A stretch of DNA of 24,946 nucleotides, taken from an uncultured Candidatus Bathyarchaeia archaeon (GTDB lineage Archaea > Thermoproteota > Bathyarchaeia > Bathyarchaeales > Bathycorpusculaceae). A program made the position numbers and the translations under genes. Of the stretch, positions 654-15,271 are shown in pieces. The notes under the pieces were generated by a model. That model worked only from the letters and a program-made list of their open reading frames with translations. It made no database searches and had not been told where the DNA came from. Where the stretch lies: NCBI GenBank assembly GCA_964450845.1, contig CAYVGZ010000011.1, positions 1-24,946 of the forward strand. Direction: 5' to 3'. Each line of letters begins with the position of its first letter. The first letter of the stretch is position 1.

Positions 654-2060
654 ATGGCCAAAGCTGAGGTTGGGGAAAACCGGTCTTCCACGTTTGCGCC
701 TCCGCGCATACTTGGCAAAAGCGGCTTAAATAACGGGAAGTTGGGCTTACACGGTCCAGTCCAGCCGCGCCGGTCCCAAAAACCTCAGCCCACCAGCAAT
801 ACTACGTACATGCCTGGGTCTCCCCCCAATGGCGTAGCCCCCCAGGATCCTCGTAGTAACAGCCAAGCCCATACATGCCCAGAATGCGGTTCCTCCAAGC
901 TTTTCAAGGACGGATTCCGCTATCTCTACGATGGAACCCCAGTTCAACGGCTGCTATGCCGAAACTGTGGATATCGTTTTAGTCTGGAAAAGGGCCGGGG
1001 GCAATGGGAAAAACCCTTACTAAAAACTTCAAAGCAGTCATTAAATAATAGCATCGCCCTACATTCTAACCGTCAAGTATGCGTAGCCTTGACAAGAGGC
1101 GCGAAAAACTTGGCCGAAGTACAAGCCCGAATAGAAAAGCCGCTGCGGGACGGCACCAGAGACCTTCCAGGAACACTCATAGATTACGCTTGGAAAATGA
1201 AGAAACGCGGCCTAGCTGAAGAAACCATAAAGCACCGGGTCTACCGCCTTAACGTCCTCATCAGGAAAGGCGCAGATCTACAGAACCCAGACAGCGTCGA
1301 AACGGTCCTTGCGACGGAGCCGTGGAAGCCGGCGAACAAACGCTTTTTCGTTATGGCATATCAAAGTTTCACCAAGACTTACAGCATCCCATGGATACCT
1401 ATCAGGCTCAAATGCGAAAACAAGCAGCCCTTCATTCCCTTAGAATCTGAAATCGACCAGTTGATAGCAGGTTGCGGCAAAAGAACAGCCACTTTCCTTC
1501 AAGTCCTCAAGGACACCGGCGCCAGGTGCGGCGAAATCAAAAGCCTCAGATGGACCGACGTCGACGACCCCAAGAGAGCCATCAGGATTAACAACCCAGA
1601 AAAGGGCAGCAATTCGAGAACGGTTCAAGTCACCCCGAAGACCCTGGCAATGCTGAACGCCTTGCCCAAACGAAGCATCTATGTCTTCAGCCCATTGGGC
1701 AGCGAACAACCGCCAAAAATCAGAAGCCTACAAAGCGTCTTCTCAAGACAGAGGAACAAGCTTGCAGTGCGTCTTCAGAACCCACGTCTCAAACAGATTC
1801 ACTTCCACACGCTCAGGCATTGGAAGGCCACAATGGAATATGCGAAGACCAGAGATATCCTTCGTGTCAAACAACTTCTAGGCCATAAGCGACTTGAGAA
1901 CACGGAGATCTATACGCATCTGATTGACTTCGCAACCGACGACTATACAGTGAGGCGCCCAAAGACTTCCAAGGAAGAGGACGAGTTTATAGAGGCTGGT
2001 TTCGAATACGTCCGCTATGACGACAAAGAGCAATGTCCAATCTACCGCAAGAGGAAATGA
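654..2060 (+). CDS. Tyrosine recombinase/integrase with N-terminal disordered region and Zn ribbon
   Basis: Catalytic set intact: TGAR (R), PEKGS (K), HTLRH (HxxR), LLGH, TEIY (Y). Zn ribbon CPECGS...CRNCG. C-terminal GFEYV...RKRK tail. GGGAGG at 639-644 supports ATG 654; ATG 810 is an alternative start. Confidence 0.95.
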   Translation: MAKAEVGENRSSTFAPPRILGKSGLNNGKLGLHGPVQPRRSQKPQPTSNTTYMPGSPPNGVAPQDPRSNSQAHTCPECGSSKLFKDGFRYLYDGTPVQRLLCRNCGYRFSLEKGRGQWEKPLLKTSKQSLNNSIALHSNRQVCVALTRGAKNLAEVQARIEKPLRDGTRDLPGTLIDYAWKMKKRGLAEETIKHRVYRLNVLIRKGADLQNPDSVETVLATEPWKPANKRFFVMAYQSFTKTYSIPWIPIRLKCENKQPFIPLESEIDQLIAGCGKRTATFLQVLKDTGARCGEIKSLRWTDVDDPKRAIRINNPEKGSNSRTVQVTPKTLAMLNALPKRSIYVFSPLGSEQPPKIRSLQSVFSRQRNKLAVRLQNPRLKQIHFHTLRHWKATMEYAKTRDILRVKQLLGHKRLENTEIYTHLIDFATDDYTVRRPKTSKEEDEFIEAGFEYVRYDDKEQCPIYRKRK

Positions 2061-2089
2061 AAAGACGTGTTACTCACGGAAAATGAATA

Positions 2090-2118
2090 CTGTTAAAGCT
2101 GGTAGCCGGCTTGAACAG
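2090..2118. other. Attachment junction (att core): CTGTTAAAGC-TGGTAGCCG-GCTTGAACAG
   Basis: 10-bp inverted arms (9/10 match) around a 9-bp spacer (7 bp if a T/G mismatch is counted in the arms). Lies 30 bp after the integrase stop, exactly where DUF763 homology ends. Confidence 0.75.
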
Positions 2119-2527
2119 CCGTATTATCGACTTTTGCGCTCATTTTGCTTGCATAACGCAAAGCCTCAATTTTATCGCTTGAGAAACCAAATCTTTCGCC
2201 AACATTTCCAATTTCTAATGGAGCTTGCAAAGAAACTTTGCCCTTGCCACCACAAACAGCAATGCCGTGATTTTCCTGTGCAACAGATTGTTTTAAAACG
2301 CCTGTAACAACTGTTGTTACGCCTGATGAATGCCAGTCATAACCTAAAACGCAGCCCAAAGCCTGAAACCAAAAGGGGTCGGAGATTCGTTTTAGAAAAT
2401 CACCAGTGCCATACTCATCAACGATAATGGTCACAATTTCTCTAGCAAGTTTCTCCATGCGAACAACGAGCCATCTTGGCGCTTTGCCATAATGAAGTGG
2501 AAGCCTAGCAACTCCTGTCCTCTGCAT
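2093..2527 (-). pseudogene. 5' fragment (~144 aa) of a DUF763 family gene, interrupted by the integrated element
   Basis: Typical DUF763 motifs LPLHYGKAPRWL, SDPFWFQALGCVLGYDWHSSGVTT, GGKG and AKVDNTAVQAGYQL, then an immediate stop. Full-length members are roughly 2.5 times longer (recalled). Start is 2527 or 2539. Confidence 0.88.
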
Positions 2528-2603
2528 AAGTATGCCCATTTACATGGTGTCTGTTCTGTTCTATTTCAATTTTGTCTCAGTGTGATGATGTGTGTGATTG
2601 TTG

Positions 2604-2632
2604 TAGGACCCGTCTATTTTGAGCCAAATATG
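2604..2632. repeat. Intergenic palindromic motif, copy 1 (TAGGACCCGTCTATTTTGAGCCAAATATG)
   Basis: 23/29 identical to 19924-19952; the core 2610-2632 is 20/23 identical. Confidence 0.5.
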
Positions 2633-2651
2633 AAGCAGAAGCGGATAACTG

Positions 2652-3500
2652 TTATTCTAATATTTGCGCTCGCTTGAGAGCGTACCATGAAATAAGCGAG
2701 AAGGCTAGTACATAGGTTAATGCTACTGCTATTGATCTCAGCAGAACAAGTGAGATGGGCTCCAGTATTCTGAAGAAAGTCACGTTTGATGAGGGGTGAA
2801 GAACATAGGTAATCATGTTGGTGGCAATGTTATCTGTTCCGCTTACTGGCAAATAGCTGAGGACCCACGCTTGATCTGAAAATACTAAAATAATAGGGGC
2901 GCTTATGAGCAAGGCCATGAAAATGCCGAAGGCTCCAAGAGCTACTATTAGCGAGCTTTTGGATAGGGAGCCTATCGCTAAAACTATGGCTACCCAAACA
3001 AAAGTGCTGGTAATGTTCCCTAATAATGAAAGAGGAACAAGGTAAAGGTTGTTTTGAGGACCGTACACAATTGTTGCACCAATGGTCGTGTACGCAAAGA
3101 GAACAGCATAGGCTGAGAGAAGAGTGATGAAAGCTGCAAACAGCTTGCCGAGGAAAACCGTAGTTCTGGAGACTGGCTTCGTTAACAGCGTTACAATTGT
3201 GCCGCTCTCAAATTCACCCGAAATGCTGTTCATAACTGTTACAAGTGCGAAAAGGAAGAAACCTAGACTACCAGCGCTGTAGCTTATTGCGTAATCTGGT
3301 TCTTGGCTTAGCGATTGACCTATCATGTTACTCAAAATAACTGGTAAAGCTAAGCCTAGAGTAGCGAAAACAAACGCAACTATGACCATGCCTAGGAACT
3401 TTTTCTTTCGGATATTCCACAGAAGCTCATATTTTACAACCGCCCAGAAACGAGTTGTCCAGCTTGGATTTGTTCTGATTTTGTTTTTTACAGTGTTCAT
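2652..3500 (-). CDS. ABC-2 type transporter permease
   Basis: About 6 TM segments and the ISGEFESGTIVTLLTKPVSR motif. Overlaps its ATPase gene by 4 nt. Confidence 0.9.
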   Translation of the reverse strand: MNTVKNKIRTNPSWTTRFWAVVKYELLWNIRKKKFLGMVIVAFVFATLGLALPVILSNMIGQSLSQEPDYAISYSAGSLGFFLFALVTVMNSISGEFESGTIVTLLTKPVSRTTVFLGKLFAAFITLLSAYAVLFAYTTIGATIVYGPQNNLYLVPLSLLGNITSTFVWVAIVLAIGSLSKSSLIVALGAFGIFMALLISAPIILVFSDQAWVLSYLPVSGTDNIATNMITYVLHPSSNVTFFRILEPISLVLLRSIAVALTYVLAFSLISWYALKRAQILE

Positions 3501-4444
3501 TCTGCTTTGCCTCCGCTTGGTTTGGTAACAAGCTGCATGAAAACTTCTTCAAGGGTTGGTCCTTTCAAGCTCATGGAAACGATAACCCCTCCAGAGTTTG
3601 TTATTTCTTGAGAAATTTGGGATCTGACGTCATCACGAGTTTTCAACTCAATAATCAACATGTTGCCATCTTGCGACACGTTAGAAACAAATTGCAGTTC
3701 CTTCACTTTTTGAATTGTTGCATCAGAGAGTTTAGCTACCTCTACTTGTAATATCGTTGGTCCTGAAAATTTGTTGGAAACGTTTTGAAGAGTATCCGAA
3801 ACCAAAGATACTCCACGGTGAATAATTGTAACGTGACTACAGATTTGTTCAACCTCAAACAATAGATGGGAGGAGACGAAAATGGTTACGCCTTCTTTCG
3901 CAATTCCTTTTACTAATTCTCTCACTTCAACCATGCCAACAGGGTCTAAACCTAAGCTTGGCTCGTCTAATACAACCAATTCGGGTTCGTTTAGCAATGC
4001 TTGTGCAATGCCTAGGCGCTGTTGCATCCCCTTGCTATACTTTCCAATGAAGTCTCTTTCCCTGCCTTTAAGCCCGACCATTTCCAACAGCTTAGGTATC
4101 TGCTCTTTACGCTCTTGCTCAGTCATTCCATACATTCTTCCATAAATGTCTAGGAGTTCCCATCCCTTCAAGTGTTTGGGAAGCTTTGGCAATTCAGGCA
4201 TGTAACCAATTCTTAGCCTAACATCTGGTCTATCTCCACGAACCTCTTGCCCTAAAACTTTAACAGTGCCCTCATTAGGGTTCAGCAAACCCACCAAAAC
4301 TTTTATTGTGGTGGTTTTTCCAGCTCCGTTAGGACCAAGAAAACCGTGTATCGTGTTCCGTTCGACCTTTAAGTTAAGCTTGTTCACAGCGGTTAGCGAA
4401 CCATACCGCTTTGTTAAGCCGCTAGTTTCTATGGCTGGCTCCAC
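3497..4444 (-). CDS. ABC-2 type transporter ATP-binding protein
   Basis: Walker A GPNGAGKTT, signature YSKGMQQR, Walker B VVLDEP, SSH switch. Confidence 0.95.
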   Translation of the reverse strand: MEPAIETSGLTKRYGSLTAVNKLNLKVERNTIHGFLGPNGAGKTTTIKVLVGLLNPNEGTVKVLGQEVRGDRPDVRLRIGYMPELPKLPKHLKGWELLDIYGRMYGMTEQERKEQIPKLLEMVGLKGRERDFIGKYSKGMQQRLGIAQALLNEPELVVLDEPSLGLDPVGMVEVRELVKGIAKEGVTIFVSSHLLFEVEQICSHVTIIHRGVSLVSDTLQNVSNKFSGPTILQVEVAKLSDATIQKVKELQFVSNVSQDGNMLIIELKTRDDVRSQISQEITNSGGVIVSMSLKGPTLEEVFMQLVTKPSGGKAE

Positions 4445-4514
4445 TTAGACAACTTCCCCAATGCTACTAATCTTATAGCCGAAGATATAAAAGTTGAATT
4501 TAGTTTGAATATTT

Positions 4515-6209
4515 TCACTTCTCCGCCTTAGTCAATAATTCTTCAGCATTTTTAACTGCTACTCTATAGAACACGTAGGTTGTGACAGAGGCTATAACCC
4601 CGCTTAAGGACAATGCCACGTACAGGTATGATTCTGGAAGCGATATGGGTATTGCTATAAAAGCTTGGGTCTCAAACAACATTTTCAAGCCGTAAGGAAT
4701 CATGGGTGAAATTATAGTTAACGCCAGAATAAAGCACACAATTACGTTGATGAAACCCCAGAGGGGCCTAATCATCCTAGGTCTGGGAAATTCACGGAAG
4801 TCGGCACCCCTTATCCCAAAACTCAGCGAGACCATACCTAGAGAGAAAACTAGTAGAATGGCTTCAGTCAAGCCTATACCAGCCATCCGTGGCGAAGGAG
4901 ACATCAAAAGGGCACTAACAACAAAGCAAACTAGGGTTATTACCAAGCTGAAAAGAGTTGCAAAGAAGTATTTTGCCTTAACAAGACTCTTGACCGATAT
5001 TGGAGACGAGTACACGTACCATACGCTTCCTCCTTCTGAGCCAGTTGTGATGCTTCCCAGAGAAATAGCCATTAAAGTTCCCGGCAGCAAAGTGATGTAG
5101 GTAAATAAGAAGGAGTAAAATACAGAGGATGTGGTATCTGCGGTGCTCCTCATCGAAGAGAAAAGGGGCATGATGATAAAAACTATGGGCATGATGAAAA
5201 TGTACATCAACTCGCGTCGCCGTGTGAAGGCCCTAAAGTCCTTTCTCATAATGGCTGCTTCCATGGAAGAGAAGCCCAATCTTCCAAGCAAACCAGTTTT
5301 TGGAATGTAGGGTCCGCGGGATATTGTAATGGATGGTGCTTCGTACAAACCAAACCTGACGTTAAGACGGACAGCAACTAGAAAGAGGGCGTAGATGAAG
5401 GCAAGTGACGCAAAAGTAAAGATTATTGCTTCTAAACTTAAGCTACTGGCAAAAGCAGAGAGGCCTATACCAAGCCAGAGGTAGGGAACGAACCAAAGTA
5501 TTCTTTGTCCACCAGCCAACGACTCGATAAGAGCGGGAAATGACCCGCCATAAATTAACGTGAAATAAACGAGGTAGAATGCGATGAAAAATGTTAGTGT
5601 TCCTAAAAGCCTCACCCATACTGCTCTTCTGCCCGCAACCTTTGTTACCGCTCCCGAAATCCTGACCTGCAAAACTTTAAGAATTTCCGTGGTGACGCTT
5701 GCTAAGAAGAGGCTTCCTAACAAAGCAAACATGGTGAAAACAGCCAAAGATACCACTCCAAAGAACGCCGAAGCCACAAAAATGCTTGAACAGATAAAGA
5801 CAGTGATTATTGATGGTGTACCAATCAGGTTAGCTAGTATAGAGGCTAGTGTATGTTCCTTCCATGTGATGGGAAACCAGTAGAGTGGCTGAATTGAAGT
5901 TTTTGCGCCGATTCGCTGAATTTGGCTCATCTGCGTAAAAACTAGGCTGTATAAGAGCGCGATGGTTGGAAGAGTTACAAAAAGGTTGGTTGCGCCTTCA
6001 AGGATGACTTGCCTCAAGTTTGAGTCAGATATTCCATGGTAAAAGTTTCCGACAAGCAAGCCGACCAACAATCCAAGCACGCATGCCACTATGTATAAAG
6101 CATATGTTACTGCTCTGTTCTCCCGAAACCTTCTGAACTTAATTCCTCTAATCATCCGTGAAGATTTAACGTCTACGCTTATCAGTCGAAGAACGTTCTT
6201 CCAGTTCAC
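4515..6209 (-). CDS. Large ABC exporter permease (564 aa, ~12 TM)
   Basis: Highly hydrophobic, with two permease-like halves. Overlaps the upstream ABC ATPase by 4 nt. Confidence 0.8.
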   Translation of the reverse strand: MNWKNVLRLISVDVKSSRMIRGIKFRRFRENRAVTYALYIVACVLGLLVGLLVGNFYHGISDSNLRQVILEGATNLFVTLPTIALLYSLVFTQMSQIQRIGAKTSIQPLYWFPITWKEHTLASILANLIGTPSIITVFICSSIFVASAFFGVVSLAVFTMFALLGSLFLASVTTEILKVLQVRISGAVTKVAGRRAVWVRLLGTLTFFIAFYLVYFTLIYGGSFPALIESLAGGQRILWFVPYLWLGIGLSAFASSLSLEAIIFTFASLAFIYALFLVAVRLNVRFGLYEAPSITISRGPYIPKTGLLGRLGFSSMEAAIMRKDFRAFTRRRELMYIFIMPIVFIIMPLFSSMRSTADTTSSVFYSFLFTYITLLPGTLMAISLGSITTGSEGGSVWYVYSSPISVKSLVKAKYFFATLFSLVITLVCFVVSALLMSPSPRMAGIGLTEAILLVFSLGMVSLSFGIRGADFREFPRPRMIRPLWGFINVIVCFILALTIISPMIPYGLKMLFETQAFIAIPISLPESYLYVALSLSGVIASVTTYVFYRVAVKNAEELLTKAEK

Positions 6210-6979
6210 TTCATCAACGCCTCAACCACGGGCTTAATGTCTCTAGTTCCAGTAAGCTTAAGGAAAATGTCCTCTAATCCCGATTCAGGCATTTTTGCCC
6301 TTTGCCGCAACTCATCCATGGTACCTAACGCCAACAACCTTCCTTCATACATGATAGCTATTCGATCGCACATGGCTTGGGCAATCTCCAAAACATGAGT
6401 AGACATTATAGCGATCACACCCTTCGCAGCTAACTCATGTAACAGGTCTTTAACGATTCTCGCGGATTTTGGGTCTAAGCCACTTAAGGGTTCATCTAAA
6501 AGCAGAAGTTCAGGTTTATGCATTAGTGCAGAGATAATAATGACCTTCTGTTTCATCCCCTCAGAATAAGAGCTTATCATGTCACCTTCTCTCCCCTCCA
6601 AATCCAAAGCCTTAACAAACTCGTCGATTCGCTTTTTCTTCTCATCAGGAGCCATCCCATAAATGTCGCCAGTGAAGTCGAGAAATTCAAGACCAGTTAA
6701 GAATTCGTAGGTGCGTGGTGATTCAGGCACGTAACCCACTTTTCTCTTTACCGCAACAGGGTCATCCTCCACATTGATGCCCAAAACGTTTACAGATCCG
6801 GAATCAGGCTTGACCAATCCTAAGATCATTTTAAGAGTTGTCGATTTGCCCGAGCCATTTGGACCAAGAAGACCGAAGATTTCACCTTTTTTTATGTCTA
6901 GGTCAAGGTAATCTACAGCTGTGATATCGCCATATCGCTTAGAAACGCTTGTCAACTTGACACTTGGAAGATAAGTCAA
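6206..6979 (-). CDS. ABC transporter ATP-binding protein
   Basis: GPNGSGKST, YSEGMKQK, LLLDEP, STH. TTG start. Confidence 0.95.
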   Translation of the reverse strand: MTYLPSVKLTSVSKRYGDITAVDYLDLDIKKGEIFGLLGPNGSGKSTTLKMILGLVKPDSGSVNVLGINVEDDPVAVKRKVGYVPESPRTYEFLTGLEFLDFTGDIYGMAPDEKKKRIDEFVKALDLEGREGDMISSYSEGMKQKVIIISALMHKPELLLLDEPLSGLDPKSARIVKDLLHELAAKGVIAIMSTHVLEIAQAMCDRIAIMYEGRLLALGTMDELRQRAKMPESGLEDIFLKLTGTRDIKPVVEALMK

Positions 6980-7061: not shown

Positions 7062-7538
7062 TCAGAAGTTTAGTAAGTGGCCCTCTCGGTCAATTTCTCC
7101 GCGACGAATTCGTGTGGTGGAGATGGGCGAGTGATTCTCAGATGGAATCATGTCAATGACAATTATTCGCAACGGAGGCAATTCCCTTCTTCCTCTTTCT
7201 TCATTGATCTTAACAGCTATGGGCTGAGTCTCGCGACTCACAATCAGAGCCTCAATACACCCTTCAGATAACGTCACCCCAAAAGGGTCATTCAACGGTA
7301 CAATGTCAGCCCTCTCCCAAACGCCTCTTTCTCGCAGAAACCTGCTCAACTCCTCCAACCTTTGCTCATAAGAGGCAGTTACATGCGGCTTACTAAGACT
7401 CTCAACAAGTCTATCAGAACATAAACCAACCAAAACACGCTCTCCAACCTCAAAGGCTTTCATGAGCAACGCTTTATGTCCCTTATGAAACTCGTCAAAG
7501 GTGCCGCCAACAGCCACGGTTTTGAACTTTTTCTCCAA
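7062..7538 (-). CDS. coaD: Archaeal phosphopantetheine adenylyltransferase
   Basis: VAVGGTFDEFHKGH (HxGH), LIVSRET and ISTTRIRRGEID motifs. Directly downstream of pantoate kinase. Confidence 0.9.
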   Translation of the reverse strand: MEKKFKTVAVGGTFDEFHKGHKALLMKAFEVGERVLVGLCSDRLVESLSKPHVTASYEQRLEELSRFLRERGVWERADIVPLNDPFGVTLSEGCIEALIVSRETQPIAVKINEERGRRELPPLRIIVIDMIPSENHSPISTTRIRRGEIDREGHLLNF

Positions 7539-7547
7539 TTCCTTTTT

Positions 7548-8480
7548 TCATCCCATTAGTCTAGCGCCCTGAATGTCAACTTGGGATACGAGAATTTTTT
7601 CTTTTGGCAAAACCCGCTTAAAAGCTTGAACCACATTTTCAGCATTTTCTAATGTTGTAAGCGCATGAACTGCTTCACCCACCATATTTTGCGTTGCACC
7701 TATTGCGCCAGCTTCTTCAGCAAGTCTTATCAACGTTCTCACACGTTCCGTCATAAACCCCGTCTTCTCAGCAAAGTCGCAGCAACAAGCTAAGAAGTTT
7801 TCAAGGGAAGGCTCGGAAAGAATTTTCTCTAAAGTTTTTTTACCCCACTTGTTGACTGCTAGACGCTTTTCAGGGGAAGCCAGCACTTCCTTCGTTGGTA
7901 TAGGCCCAAAGACTCCAGCAACAATTACATAATCTGTGGATATGGGTATTCGGTCTATAATGGCTATTCCAGGCGCACCAGGCTCTATGGTGAGTATGCA
8001 TCCGCCGAGCATTAGTGGTCCGACTGTGCCTAAACCTGTTTTACATTTAACTTCAGCGACATGCGCAATTCTGCCTATCTGATTATAAGTCAAATCTAGA
8101 CCTAACGCTTTTGATAATGCTAAAGCCGTGGTTAACGCTCCAGCAGCACTTGAACCGAACCCTGCACCAATTGGGACATCAACTCTATGCTTAACCACAA
8201 CATTGTAGGTTCCGCTGACCTTGCTAAGCAACATTTGCACTACAGTTTTTGTTGTTCTAGCTTCGAGTAGAGACTTTCCGTTAATACTGACTTTTACAGA
8301 GTTCTTTTCCGCTTCCGTTACACTTGTTTTTGTTAATACTCCTTTCTTAATTCCGAAGCCTCCGCCTCGGGCACCTACTTGTTCAAGATTAAGTATAGGT
8401 TTCCCATCAGCCGTTGTATCACAAATCTCGAAAAAACTTGATATACCTGCTGGAGAGAAAGCCTTCGAGGTTTTACTCAA
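7548..8480 (-). CDS. pok: Pantoate kinase (GHMP family)
   Basis: N-terminal FSPAGISSFF, GHMP motif PIGAGFGSSAAG, AHVAEV...TGLGTV, NMVGEAV. Confidence 0.85.
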   Translation of the reverse strand: MSKTSKAFSPAGISSFFEICDTTADGKPILNLEQVGARGGGFGIKKGVLTKTSVTEAEKNSVKVSINGKSLLEARTTKTVVQMLLSKVSGTYNVVVKHRVDVPIGAGFGSSAAGALTTALALSKALGLDLTYNQIGRIAHVAEVKCKTGLGTVGPLMLGGCILTIEPGAPGIAIIDRIPISTDYVIVAGVFGPIPTKEVLASPEKRLAVNKWGKKTLEKILSEPSLENFLACCCDFAEKTGFMTERVRTLIRLAEEAGAIGATQNMVGEAVHALTTLENAENVVQAFKRVLPKEKILVSQVDIQGARLMG

Positions 8481-12602: not shown

Positions 12603-13658
12603 ATGGTTGACTGGTCAAAGATTTTAGAAAAAAGTCCAATCGATTGGCTTCTCGAAGAAACAAATCCATCCGTTCGTTACTTTACGTTGCGCGACATCCT
12701 CGACAAAGACGAAAATAACCCTCAACTCGTAGTTGCAAAACAAGCCATCCCAAAATCAGAAGTGGTAAAAAAAATATTACAGAAGCAAAAACCAGATGGG
12801 TACTGGGAAGAACCAGCAAAACCTTACCTTCCGAAGTACAAGTCTTCTTATTGGCAGATAATGATTCTTGGACAGTTGGGCATGGATAAAACTGATAAAA
12901 GGATTGAAAAAGCCTGCGAACACATTTTCCAATTTCAATTTGAAGAAGGTGGCTTCACATCTGAAACCAGAGAAACAGCACTCATGGAATATCGTTGGCT
13001 CTTGAAAAGAGGAAAAAAGCTGCCTCCCTATGACAAGTGGATATCTAACATTATTTTTGAACAGCAACTTTCATGTCTCACTGGAAACATGGTCGTAGCT
13101 CTGATTAGACTTGGATACGAAAATGATTCTCGAGTGCACAAAGCCATAAAATGGCTTGTTAAAATTCAAAACAAAGACGGAGGATGGCTCTGTCCATACT
13201 GGAAAGCCCACATCAAAGACAAACATGGATGCTTCCATGGAACAATTTGCCCCTTAGAAGCCTTTTCGGAAGTGAAGAAGGAAAATTTAACTAAAGAAAT
13301 GAAGAAAGCGATTGAAAAAGGCGAAGAATTTCTACTTATGCATCGTTTATTTAAGGCTGACCATCACGGCTATAAGGTGATTAACCAATCTTGGTTAAAG
13401 CTGAGTTTCCCATGGTTTTACGGATACAACATCCTAAGAGGATTAGATGTCTTAGCCAAACTTGGTTATGTGAAGGATGAACGTTCAAACGATGCTGTCG
13501 AGATTCTCTTACAAAAGCGGCAAAGCAGTGGAGCGTGGATTTTGGAAAGTGCTCCAATTGGAAGAATGCAAACTAACATAGAAGCAAAGGGCAAACCTAG
13601 CAAGTGGATCACCCTCATTGCTTTAAGAGTGCTAAAGCGTCTTGGTGACGAGAGGTAA
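12603..13658 (+). CDS. Prenyltransferase/squalene-cyclase-like (alpha/alpha)-barrel protein of unknown function
   Basis: Repeated QW-like motifs: QKPDGYW, QFEEGGF, QNKDGGW, RQSSGAW. Confidence 0.75.
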   Translation: MVDWSKILEKSPIDWLLEETNPSVRYFTLRDILDKDENNPQLVVAKQAIPKSEVVKKILQKQKPDGYWEEPAKPYLPKYKSSYWQIMILGQLGMDKTDKRIEKACEHIFQFQFEEGGFTSETRETALMEYRWLLKRGKKLPPYDKWISNIIFEQQLSCLTGNMVVALIRLGYENDSRVHKAIKWLVKIQNKDGGWLCPYWKAHIKDKHGCFHGTICPLEAFSEVKKENLTKEMKKAIEKGEEFLLMHRLFKADHHGYKVINQSWLKLSFPWFYGYNILRGLDVLAKLGYVKDERSNDAVEILLQKRQSSGAWILESAPIGRMQTNIEAKGKPSKWITLIALRVLKRLGDER

Positions 13659-13662
13659 ACCG

Positions 13663-14163
13663 TTATTCGCCAATCCCTTTCTGATATGCGTCTATCAAGT
13701 AATTGAATGTGAAGGACTTCATTATGACACTTCCCGATATGCTCATGAGAAAGACTTTGAAATCTTCGAGATATTTGCCCCAGTCTCTCCTAAAAACGTG
13801 GTAAAATTTTACGAAATCAGCGTAATCCTTATGGATCGAAACCATCACAGCGTCTGAATCTATCCCTTGACCAGTGCTTATAAACATCACGTTCGGCTGA
13901 TCCTTCGCCCATTCCTTTCCTTTGTCCCAAAGAGGGTGCACAAGCTCCTTTGAACGGAAAAGTGTCAAGGCTAGTATGTCAAAGCCAAGATAGGAAAGAT
14001 TCGGGATTATAGTATACTGTTTTATCGCTTCTCTTTCTAGAACTTTCCTTAGCCGAGTTACAGTAGGCTGGGAAATGTCTAGGATCTTCGCTAGGTCTCT
14101 GTCGCTTCGCTTCGAATTTTTAATCAATTCGAAAAGTAGTTTGACTAGTTTTTCTTGTTTCAT
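13663..14163 (-). CDS. Lrp/AsnC family transcriptional regulator
   Basis: N-terminal HTH (NSKRSDRDLAKILDISQPTVTR) followed by a RAM-like domain. Confidence 0.85.
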   Translation of the reverse strand: MKQEKLVKLLFELIKNSKRSDRDLAKILDISQPTVTRLRKVLEREAIKQYTIIPNLSYLGFDILALTLFRSKELVHPLWDKGKEWAKDQPNVMFISTGQGIDSDAVMVSIHKDYADFVKFYHVFRRDWGKYLEDFKVFLMSISGSVIMKSFTFNYLIDAYQKGIGE

Positions 14164-14236
14164 AAATAACTTTTATGCTGAAATCCCTTATGAAACTTTG
14201 CACTAATCCAGACATTTTTGATAAGTATTTAATGAT

Positions 14237-15271
14237 TTAGAGGTTAGCTTTTGCGCATTTGACAACATTTACTGTTCTCTGCAAAAGAAGTTGAGCTGCC
14301 TCTTGTGTAGGCCATCCGCCTAAGCCACAGTCAGGACCTGTAAAAGTCATTCTATCTCCATATTTTTCTTTGGCTGTTACAAATCTTTTTCTTATAGTTG
14401 CTTCGCTTTCAACCAATTGCTCTGCATTTGGTTTCATTATGCCCTTCTCATATAGTTCTGCCATAATTGAGTTTATGTCTGTTCGTGATACTCCAACCCT
14501 TATCTGCTTGTCCGCTCGCTCCAGCATTTTTTTTGAAACTTCTTCGATGTTTTTAGGAGATGCTGCATACTCAAACGATAACACATCAAGATTTTTAACG
14601 TCCAATATGTTGGCAACCCTTGATGGAGAATGTAAATGAACCTGTTTTGTAACACCATTGAAATCGAAGGCTTTTTCAAGAGCGTCTAAAATTGTGTCTT
14701 CATCGGCAGATATGTCTTGAAATCCAAAGCTGGGCTCATCCAGTGACACCACTTCTGTTTTGATGTATTTGGAATTTAGAATAGAATTTTTTGCAAATCG
14801 TTTTACAGTTTCTGCAAGCATTAAGAGAATGTCCTTATAAGCTATGGTTCCAATCTCTTTCAGATACAATTCCATAGGTCCTGTAACACATACACGAAGC
14901 AAAACTTTTTTCCCAGTTTCTTCACAGATTCTTTTTGCTTCGTCATTAATTACATGCACTTCTGGCATAATTGCCTGTTTTTCGTCGACTGCATATGTGC
15001 CTTTATCCATAGCCCTGTGGATAACATCTGTAAATTGCCAATGCATGTCGCAATGTTGCGGGTAGTTAACAACATCCAAACCTGTGTCGAATTTTTTCTT
15101 GAAGGAATCAATTATAACTCGGCAAAAATTGTTGAGGATGAACTCATCTTTTCTGAAATCTTTTTCATTTATTAATGCGTCTCTTGTACGAACATATGCT
15201 TCATTGAACAATTTTCTATCCACATAATCGGGTAACGGAAAACTTCCCACATCATCAACCAGAGTATTCAT
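14237..15271 (-). CDS. Core (single-barrel) MetE-like methionine synthase family protein
   Basis: N-terminal DDVGSFP, VTGP, SLDEPS and PDCGL motifs. Zn ligands appear as H-x-H...E...C. Confidence 0.75.
   Translation of the reverse strand: MNTLVDDVGSFPLPDYVDRKLFNEAYVRTRDALINEKDFRKDEFILNNFCRVIIDSFKKKFDTGLDVVNYPQHCDMHWQFTDVIHRAMDKGTYAVDEKQAIMPEVHVINDEAKRICEETGKKVLLRVCVTGPMELYLKEIGTIAYKDILLMLAETVKRFAKNSILNSKYIKTEVVSLDEPSFGFQDISADEDTILDALEKAFDFNGVTKQVHLHSPSRVANILDVKNLDVLSFEYAASPKNIEEVSKKMLERADKQIRVGVSRTDINSIMAELYEKGIMKPNAEQLVESEATIRKRFVTAKEKYGDRMTFTGPDCGLGGWPTQEAAQLLLQRTVNVVKCAKANL

Follow-up and report, generated by a model that had tools for sequence, protein, structure and literature searches.

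Mobile elements that lie inside an open reading frame (ORF) are familiar from bacteria: excision of skin in sigK of Bacillus subtilis, of the nifD element of Anabaena and of phi10403S in comK of Listeria is developmentally or conditionally triggered, and those of them that are domesticated are fixed in their lineage. The present study concerns an archaeal locus on a contig of 24,946 nucleotides (nt) from an uncultured Candidatus Bathyarchaeia archaeon (CAYVGZ010000011.1 of assembly GCA_964450845.1; the window), in which the gene of a DUF763 family protein is cut by the end of an element carrying its own tyrosine integrase. Most probably this is an ordinary integrative element which inserts site-specifically, using a conserved motif of the dispensable DUF763 gene as its attachment site attB. 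With skin, the nifD element and the comK phage it shares a location within an ORF that excision by a site-specific recombinase can make whole again; in contrast to these, occupancy of the DUF763 site is sporadic and the cargo variable.

In thaumarchaea, 14 integrations of integrated mobile genetic elements (iMGEs) in protein-coding genes have been described, in 3'-distal position, and in NitEve-E2 an element-borne stop at the junction reconstitutes the ORF (PMC6563490, Krupovic et al. 2019). A review of archaeal tyrosine recombinases adds few further coding targets, none of them tested (PMC8371274). In the SSV-type (type I, 'suicidal') integrases, attP resides within int, and integration splits int (PMC7253208). 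The DUF763 elements resemble the type II and thaumarchaeal iMGEs in an integrase that stays intact, in the location of attP beside int, in a short att core, and in a cryptic, plasmid-like cargo with a primase-helicase; like NitEve-E2, the element brings its own stop to the junction. They differ from the thaumarchaeal elements by hitting the gene at residue 145 of ~380, such that it is destroyed, and by their bathyarchaeal host. With the SSV type they share an archaeal tyrosine integrase on a small integrative element, whereas in the window it is the host gene that is split, the integrase being whole. In the literature, neither integration into DUF763, nor archaeal insertions that disrupt a gene midway, nor bathyarchaeal elements of this sort were found described; a literature search for DUF763 yielded one paper, which was unrelated. 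What is new about this type II integrative element is its target and its host lineage, together with a position at which the gene is destroyed; the mechanism itself is known.

The junction of integrase and DUF763 in the window

The window (G000:C11:1-24946) spans contig C11 of the metagenome-assembled genome (MAG) G000 from end to end; the MAG comprises 1.64 Mb in 120 contigs and is 93% complete. G002, a genome of the same genus, served as reference for the empty site (attB). The features at the start of the contig are:

1-2093: right-hand end of the integrated element, marked by a GC shift and conserved arm sequence; the contig starts too late to include its left part
100-444 (114 aa) and 405-650 (81 aa), plus strand: two small element ORFs, without a match in Pfam, PHROGs or PADLOC
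654-2060, plus strand: intact tyrosine integrase of 468 aa with an N-terminal Zn-ribbon (PF00589)
2061-2093: element arm of attL, from the integrase stop to the crossover; differs from attB of G002 from base 2093, conserved among window-like elements
2093-2095, minus strand: junction TAA stop; its final A (2093) is the one base found in the element arm but not in attB
2094-2107, minus strand: crossover region GGCTACCAGCTTTA in the codons Gly-Tyr-Gln-Leu-(Tyr); minimal core AGCTTT, 2095-2100
2096-2539, minus strand: DUF763 5' part, residues 1-148 (PF05559); likely true start ATG at 2525-2527

The minus-strand ORF 2093-2539 encodes 148 aa that match profile PF05559 over positions 1-139 of 319 (E 2.5e-61; 208 bits against a cut-off of 35.5), which places it in the DUF763 family above the gathering score, though for the 5' part only. 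The junction reads GCC GGC TAC CAG CTT TAA CAG TAT TCA TTT on this strand. The C-terminus of the fragment, ...VDNTAVQAGYQL (QAGYQL), is directly followed by TAA, and the frame after this stop gives QYSFSVSNTSFHFLLR up to the next stop, unrelated to DUF763; intact homologues continue past the motif as GYQLYHHAF...WAV(I/V)QQGM. The original prediction, made from the letters of the window, had described this reading and the foreign frame behind it in exactly these terms, and had given the YHH...WAVVQQGM continuation which is indeed seen in intact homologues. The integrase and the fragment are convergent and 32 nt apart, and the GC content changes from 48-54% over the integrase to 40-45% in the host flank. 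In G002 the uninterrupted site is ...GGCTACCAGCTTTACCATCAC..., whose identity with the window ends at 2094, with divergence from 2093. The T of the junction stop belongs to the core and its middle A (2094) is common to attB; the element arm supplies a stop where the host has TAY, as had been anticipated.

The integrase is uninterrupted, in agreement with the earlier claim, and scores 71 bits against PF00589 (E 1.3e-19; cut-off 27 bits). It is XerA-like by NCBIfam, with an IS1-type Zn-binding domain at residues 75-111, and an alignment to XerA (5hxy) places all catalytic residues of a tyrosine recombinase, namely the Arg (ARCGE), the HxxR motif (HTLRH) and the Tyr (IYTHL). The enzyme is of type II (pNOB8-type), being whole in the integrated state, with the crossover 33-40 nt past its stop codon. 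Type I (SSV-type) was considered and rejected; not only the window int but also its full-length relatives L028, L029, L032 and L033 are whole. The exact window protein is not on record in an exact-protein look-up, a search of viral contigs gave no integrase relative, and a scan with the arm motif returned one chance match in an unrelated gene. The family is abundant in genomes of the order, with up to 26 matches per genome, and the closest relatives not linked to DUF763 abut tRNA genes, which points to a conventional integrase family of which a sub-group has been retargeted to DUF763. A frameshifted integrase on contig C98 of G002 was rejected as DUF763-linked, as it does not adjoin a DUF763 arm.

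The course of events can be rationalized as follows. A bathyarchaeal element, of which the last 2.1 kb are on the contig, would have recombined into the Gln-Leu-Tyr codons of GYQLYHH, its integrase recognising a core that is short (AGCTTT, or perhaps as much as 14 nt), with attP located just 3' of int. Integration would inactivate DUF763, and excision by the same integrase would rebuild the gene exactly (CAG CTT TAY); the site would have been chosen as a strongly conserved sequence within a gene that the host can spare. Such reversibility is a property of the recombination chemistry; no host regulatory circuit is shown by it.

Recurrence of the insertion at the same codons

The window was compared with a set of 401 genomes of the same order, 303 of which carry DUF763, nearly every copy being intact, and metagenome contigs were scanned with the window integrase for further loci. 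Six genomes (G166, G246, G270, G295, G318 and G319) hold both DUF763 halves on one contig, with inserts of 3.9-17.5 kb. The 5' part of all six reaches profile position 145-148, and position 133-138 is where their 3' part sets in; the former closes with QAGY(Q/P)L and the latter opens with LYHHAF, and a homologue of the window integrase (35-54% identity) adjoins attL. In a seventh locus, L071 on a 35.9-kb metagenome contig, an integrase 88% identical to that of the window is found, and both halves flank an element of 8.6 kb with an 11-nt core, CAGCTATATCA. About 14 further metagenome loci show the same junction of integrase and DUF763 5' part. GY(Q/P)L is the position of every one of the 23 distinct element junctions; in the split loci the insert interrupts the near-invariant GYQLYHH motif exactly at its Gln-Leu-Tyr codons. 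The claim that DUF763 is cut by an integrated element thus holds for the window, where the profile match gives way to the element arm, and the junction recurs elsewhere.

The arm sequence of the window, TAACAGTATTC..., is common to six metagenome loci whose host arms differ at synonymous positions, and this combination of a shared arm with differing host arms fixes the boundary between host and element at the Leu/Tyr codons. The direct repeats of attL and attR are short: the longest, of 19 nt, is that of G166, L071 follows with 11 nt, and five loci have 6 nt each, AGCTTT or AACTCT. The site is occupied in seven of the 303 DUF763-bearing genomes, scattered over three families, and is empty in the sister species G002. 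Independent assemblies with the same junction number more than 20, and among their contigs are some of hundreds of kb up to 2.5 Mb; such a recurrence speaks against both chance and an assembly artefact.

A peculiarity of G002 should be mentioned in this context. Its intact gene is distributed over two contigs, the end of C137 and the start of C61, which overlap by exactly 55 nt, as is typical where an assembly graph built with k=55 branches. The common 55-mer has its first base, the G matching window position 2107, 14 nt ahead of the crossover; the chance of a break so near the site is estimated at ~0.003, given ~150 contigs in 1.6 Mb. The simplest reading of these contig ends would be that filled and empty sites co-exist in the G002 population, and the window-type core may accordingly extend to 14 nt (2094-2107). 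A contig of G159 also ends 30 nt beyond the site.

The integrases closest to that of the window (88-90% identity) are those of L071, L072 and L122, and the window element can be aligned to L071 only from position 447 onward. The 17.5-kb element of G318 (L033) encodes a primase-polymerase/D5-type helicase overlapping the int start, winged helix-turn-helix (wHTH) regulators and a PKD-domain protein, and the cargo of L071 includes a glycosyltransferase and a D5-like HTH protein; judged by gene content, both cargoes are plasmid- or virus-like and cryptic. Between L031 and L032 the cargo is unrelated at the DNA level while the att arms are similar, which indicates independent insertion events. In L031 (oriented 2059-3235) and L071 (9863-11445) the integrase is frameshifted into two ORFs with both DUF763 halves still open; by their reading frames these elements are probably trapped.

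DUF763 is also hit by elements of other architecture. In L030 (G166), L113, L115, L117 and L127, a short integrase of ~280 aa closely follows the DUF763 5' part and points in the same direction, the codons hit being those of the window type; the element of L030 (G166:C59) covers 1893-5895 and has the 19-nt core. Along these lines, in the database ORF P0142 (420 aa) the DUF763 5' part is fused in frame to such a short integrase, and from this arrangement the host promoter might drive the integrase in the co-oriented type. Self-splitting of the SSV type was rejected for L030, since the attP rebuilt in silico has no int start upstream of the core. In G096 (L149, G096:C5:7300-23400), a 14-kb insert lies ~30 codons further downstream, at the invariant RRYHW motif, a second hot spot of insertion in the gene, with junctions near 1027 and 15065; it carries a distant PF00589 integrase of 457 aa (13625-14998, minus strand) and eight large ORFs without a Pfam match. 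At least three kinds of element therefore hit DUF763, those with a long convergent integrase, those with a short co-oriented one, and the G096 type. G271 and G051 retain only DUF763 residues ~170 to 319.

DUF763 and the consequences of its interruption

In an alignment of 70 homologues, Tyr 145, the crossover codon, is invariant and His 147 nearly so, and most other invariant residues are found downstream of the cut (Gln 161, Gln 162, Gly 163, Arg 172, Arg 173, Tyr 174, His 175 and Trp 176). In an AlphaFold (AF2) model of DUF763 of G014 (P0001; model m219cf8da7e47), with a predicted local distance difference test score (pLDDT) of 83 and a predicted template modelling score (pTM) of 0.82, the strand interrupted by the insertion is 143-152; it opens a series of three long consecutive strands (143-177) on which these residues lie. 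Insertion at residue 145 of ~380 removes 60% of the protein. Since the 148-aa product lacks the sheet with most invariant residues, the model makes it very unlikely to be functional. Nor is a protein made in two pieces likely, as a start codon is not conserved among the 3' halves and LYHH comes right after two stops in L033.

The stop at the junction is a separate matter. TAA or TGA directly follows the Leu codon in 17 of the 23 element junctions, whereas the closest relatives of the window have TAT (L071) or TCA (L072) in this place; there the frame still ends within ~20 codons, so that the stop is not what inactivates the gene. Of the proposal that the junction stop switches the gene off, the truncation stands, while the stop is dispensable for it. 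Dyad symmetry was considered as a reason for the stop, but rebuilt attP sites show it only weakly, with no more than 4-nt outer inverted repeats; the stop may have been favoured because it ends translation cleanly, or it may belong to an arm to which the integrase binds.

No relative of DUF763 was found by sequence in the PDB, and none in NCBIfam or PADLOC. At the level of the fold, the best Foldseek hit had an E value of 0.47 and the best VIA-align hit (48,161 chains) a Z score of 5.2, restricted to residues 207-306. The N-terminal 200 residues of the model gave no PDB match, the weak matches (Z ~5) being confined to the helical part 207-306, and the DUF763 fold may be undescribed. Residues 270-309 resemble a helix-hairpin-helix by sequence (GIGxxT). 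The neighbours of DUF763 are housekeeping genes, such as those for ribosomal proteins, Spt4, and coenzyme A (CoA) and flavin metabolism; the neighbourhoods of two distant homologues were uninformative.

As to the need for DUF763, 42 of the 238 high-quality genomes in the order gave no match, and neither did whole genera; the gene is frameshifted or reduced to a remnant in at least eight more genomes. Such frequent loss and decay imply that the host tolerates its absence. A copy is present in Sulfolobus acidocaldarius. The decayed loci include G364:C8 (L035), G378:C1, G284:C9, G377:C7, G394:C18, G194:C5, G123:C9 and G241, with a frameshift, an internal deletion or short remnants; some of these cases may be sequencing errors. 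The frameshift in G364 lies nine codons past the att core.

Competing explanations and gene neighbourhood

Several findings weigh against the interpretation as an ordinary site-specific insertion. The 3' half of DUF763 is not in the G000 assembly; contig C11 begins inside the element, and it is for this reason that the half is missing from the MAG. attR and the rest of the element, too, lie outside the assembly. A search of G000 for contigs overlapping the C11 start or holding another 14-nt core gave chance matches with 1-2 mismatches only, and a search for the rest of the element with the ORFs of six related elements gave only a second integrase paralogue on C118; the smallest contigs of the assembly are ~2.5 kb, and a shorter one could have been dropped. 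Furthermore, in a quick maximum-likelihood tree the DUF763-linked integrases are not resolved as one clade, a result with which a single origin is compatible. Finally, counted by arm sequence, junction stops occur in five of ~8 lineages, against three of 16 codons (19%) expected if the first T is fixed by the core, with the proviso that the arm lineages are related to one another. This excess hints at some selection on the truncated product, which a plain insertion would not require; we consider it suggestive. The paralogue on C118 (L147, G000:C118:1715-2647) is 43-46% identical to the window integrase and runs off the end of its 2.6-kb contig.

Among the alternatives, it is conceivable, if rather unlikely, that DUF763 is not a passive target and that several unrelated bathyarchaeal elements enter its most conserved motifs for a reason, either in that disabling it aids establishment of the element, or in that reversible insertion amounts to a heritable on/off polymorphism, an archaeal form of active lysogeny. 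In the co-oriented type, a DUF763 promoter driving the integrase could couple excision to expression of the gene.

A stricter version holds that DUF763 hinders mobile elements, for example as a DNA-binding or repair-like protein, and that elements gain by a targeted knock-out, which would account for the use of this one gene by several elements unrelated to each other. Three element architectures use the gene, the helix-hairpin-helix-like motif would suit such a role, and the insertions are destructive and in mid-gene, unlike the 3'-distal, ORF-preserving ones of thaumarchaea (PMC6563490). On the other hand, DUF763 has no PADLOC match and no structural or sequence relative with a known function, its neighbours are housekeeping genes rather than defence islands, and conserved motifs suit attB whatever the function of the gene, all of which leaves a targeted knock-out improbable.

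The original prediction went further and proposed a candidate regulated gene-integrity switch that could be live; in this view the element would be retained because it turns DUF763 on and off, excision under defined conditions restoring the gene. An intact integrase, clean truncation by a stop in 17 of 23 junctions, and the break in the contig graph of G002, which suggests both states in one population, speak in favour of such a device. No replacement copy exists either: in G000 no second DUF763 sequence was detected by hidden Markov model (HMM) search or by tblastn with 11 full-length homologues, and none was found in the other split genomes. Exact restoration by precise excision, its second element, is supported elsewhere by 3' halves that are present in seven other split loci, both halves being free of internal stops; in the window genome, this part of the claim lacks its 3' half. 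The window 5' part is 90% identical to G002 at the nucleotide level, and of its codon changes after residue 4, 25 are synonymous and 10 non-synonymous, so that purifying selection has dominated since the split; from the ratio of non-synonymous to synonymous change (dN/dS, omega) of ~0.15, a rough count, it follows only that the divergence was for the most part older than the insertion or under constraint, and the ratio does not discriminate between the models, a recent insertion explaining it equally well. Against a switch stand several observations. A domesticated device should be fixed and vertically inherited, yet occupancy is sporadic, with G002 empty, and the cargo varies between copies, as in L031 and L032. 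The integrases of L031 and L071 are broken beside open halves, which fits recent insertion followed by decay better than maintenance; loss of DUF763 is tolerated; and no condition, regulator or excisionase has been identified. The switch is therefore not sustained, and we hold it to be decidedly improbable. That a chimeric contig or a binning error joined the integrase to an unrelated DUF763 fragment, as the fragmented MAG, the contig start inside the element and the missing 3' half might suggest, is scarcely credible in view of the identical junction with a homologous element arm in so many independent assemblies.

Insertion of an ordinary integrative element at the GYQLYHH codons thus remains the preferred explanation, and it carries some consequences. 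It provides a precise, recurrent intragenic attB for an integrase family of Bathyarchaeia, a class which is uncultured and whose mobilome is barely described, and it yields ready-made att sequences for probing the specificity of archaeal integrases. For DUF763, a widespread family without known fold or function, being dispensable and repeatedly targeted is a first functional hint. If excision were conditional, this would be the first archaeal gene controlled by excision of an element.

Beyond the DUF763 fragment, the window continues with an ABC-transporter block at 2652-6979, consisting of an ABC-2 permease, two ATPases and a 564-aa membrane protein. It separates DUF763 from a cytidylyltransferase/GHMP-kinase pair (7062-8480), both genes of which adjoin DUF763 in G166; in G318 it is the cytidylyltransferase homologue that does so. 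Next follow flavin genes, namely those for an ECF riboflavin S component, a CTP-dependent riboflavin kinase and an FAD synthetase-like protein.

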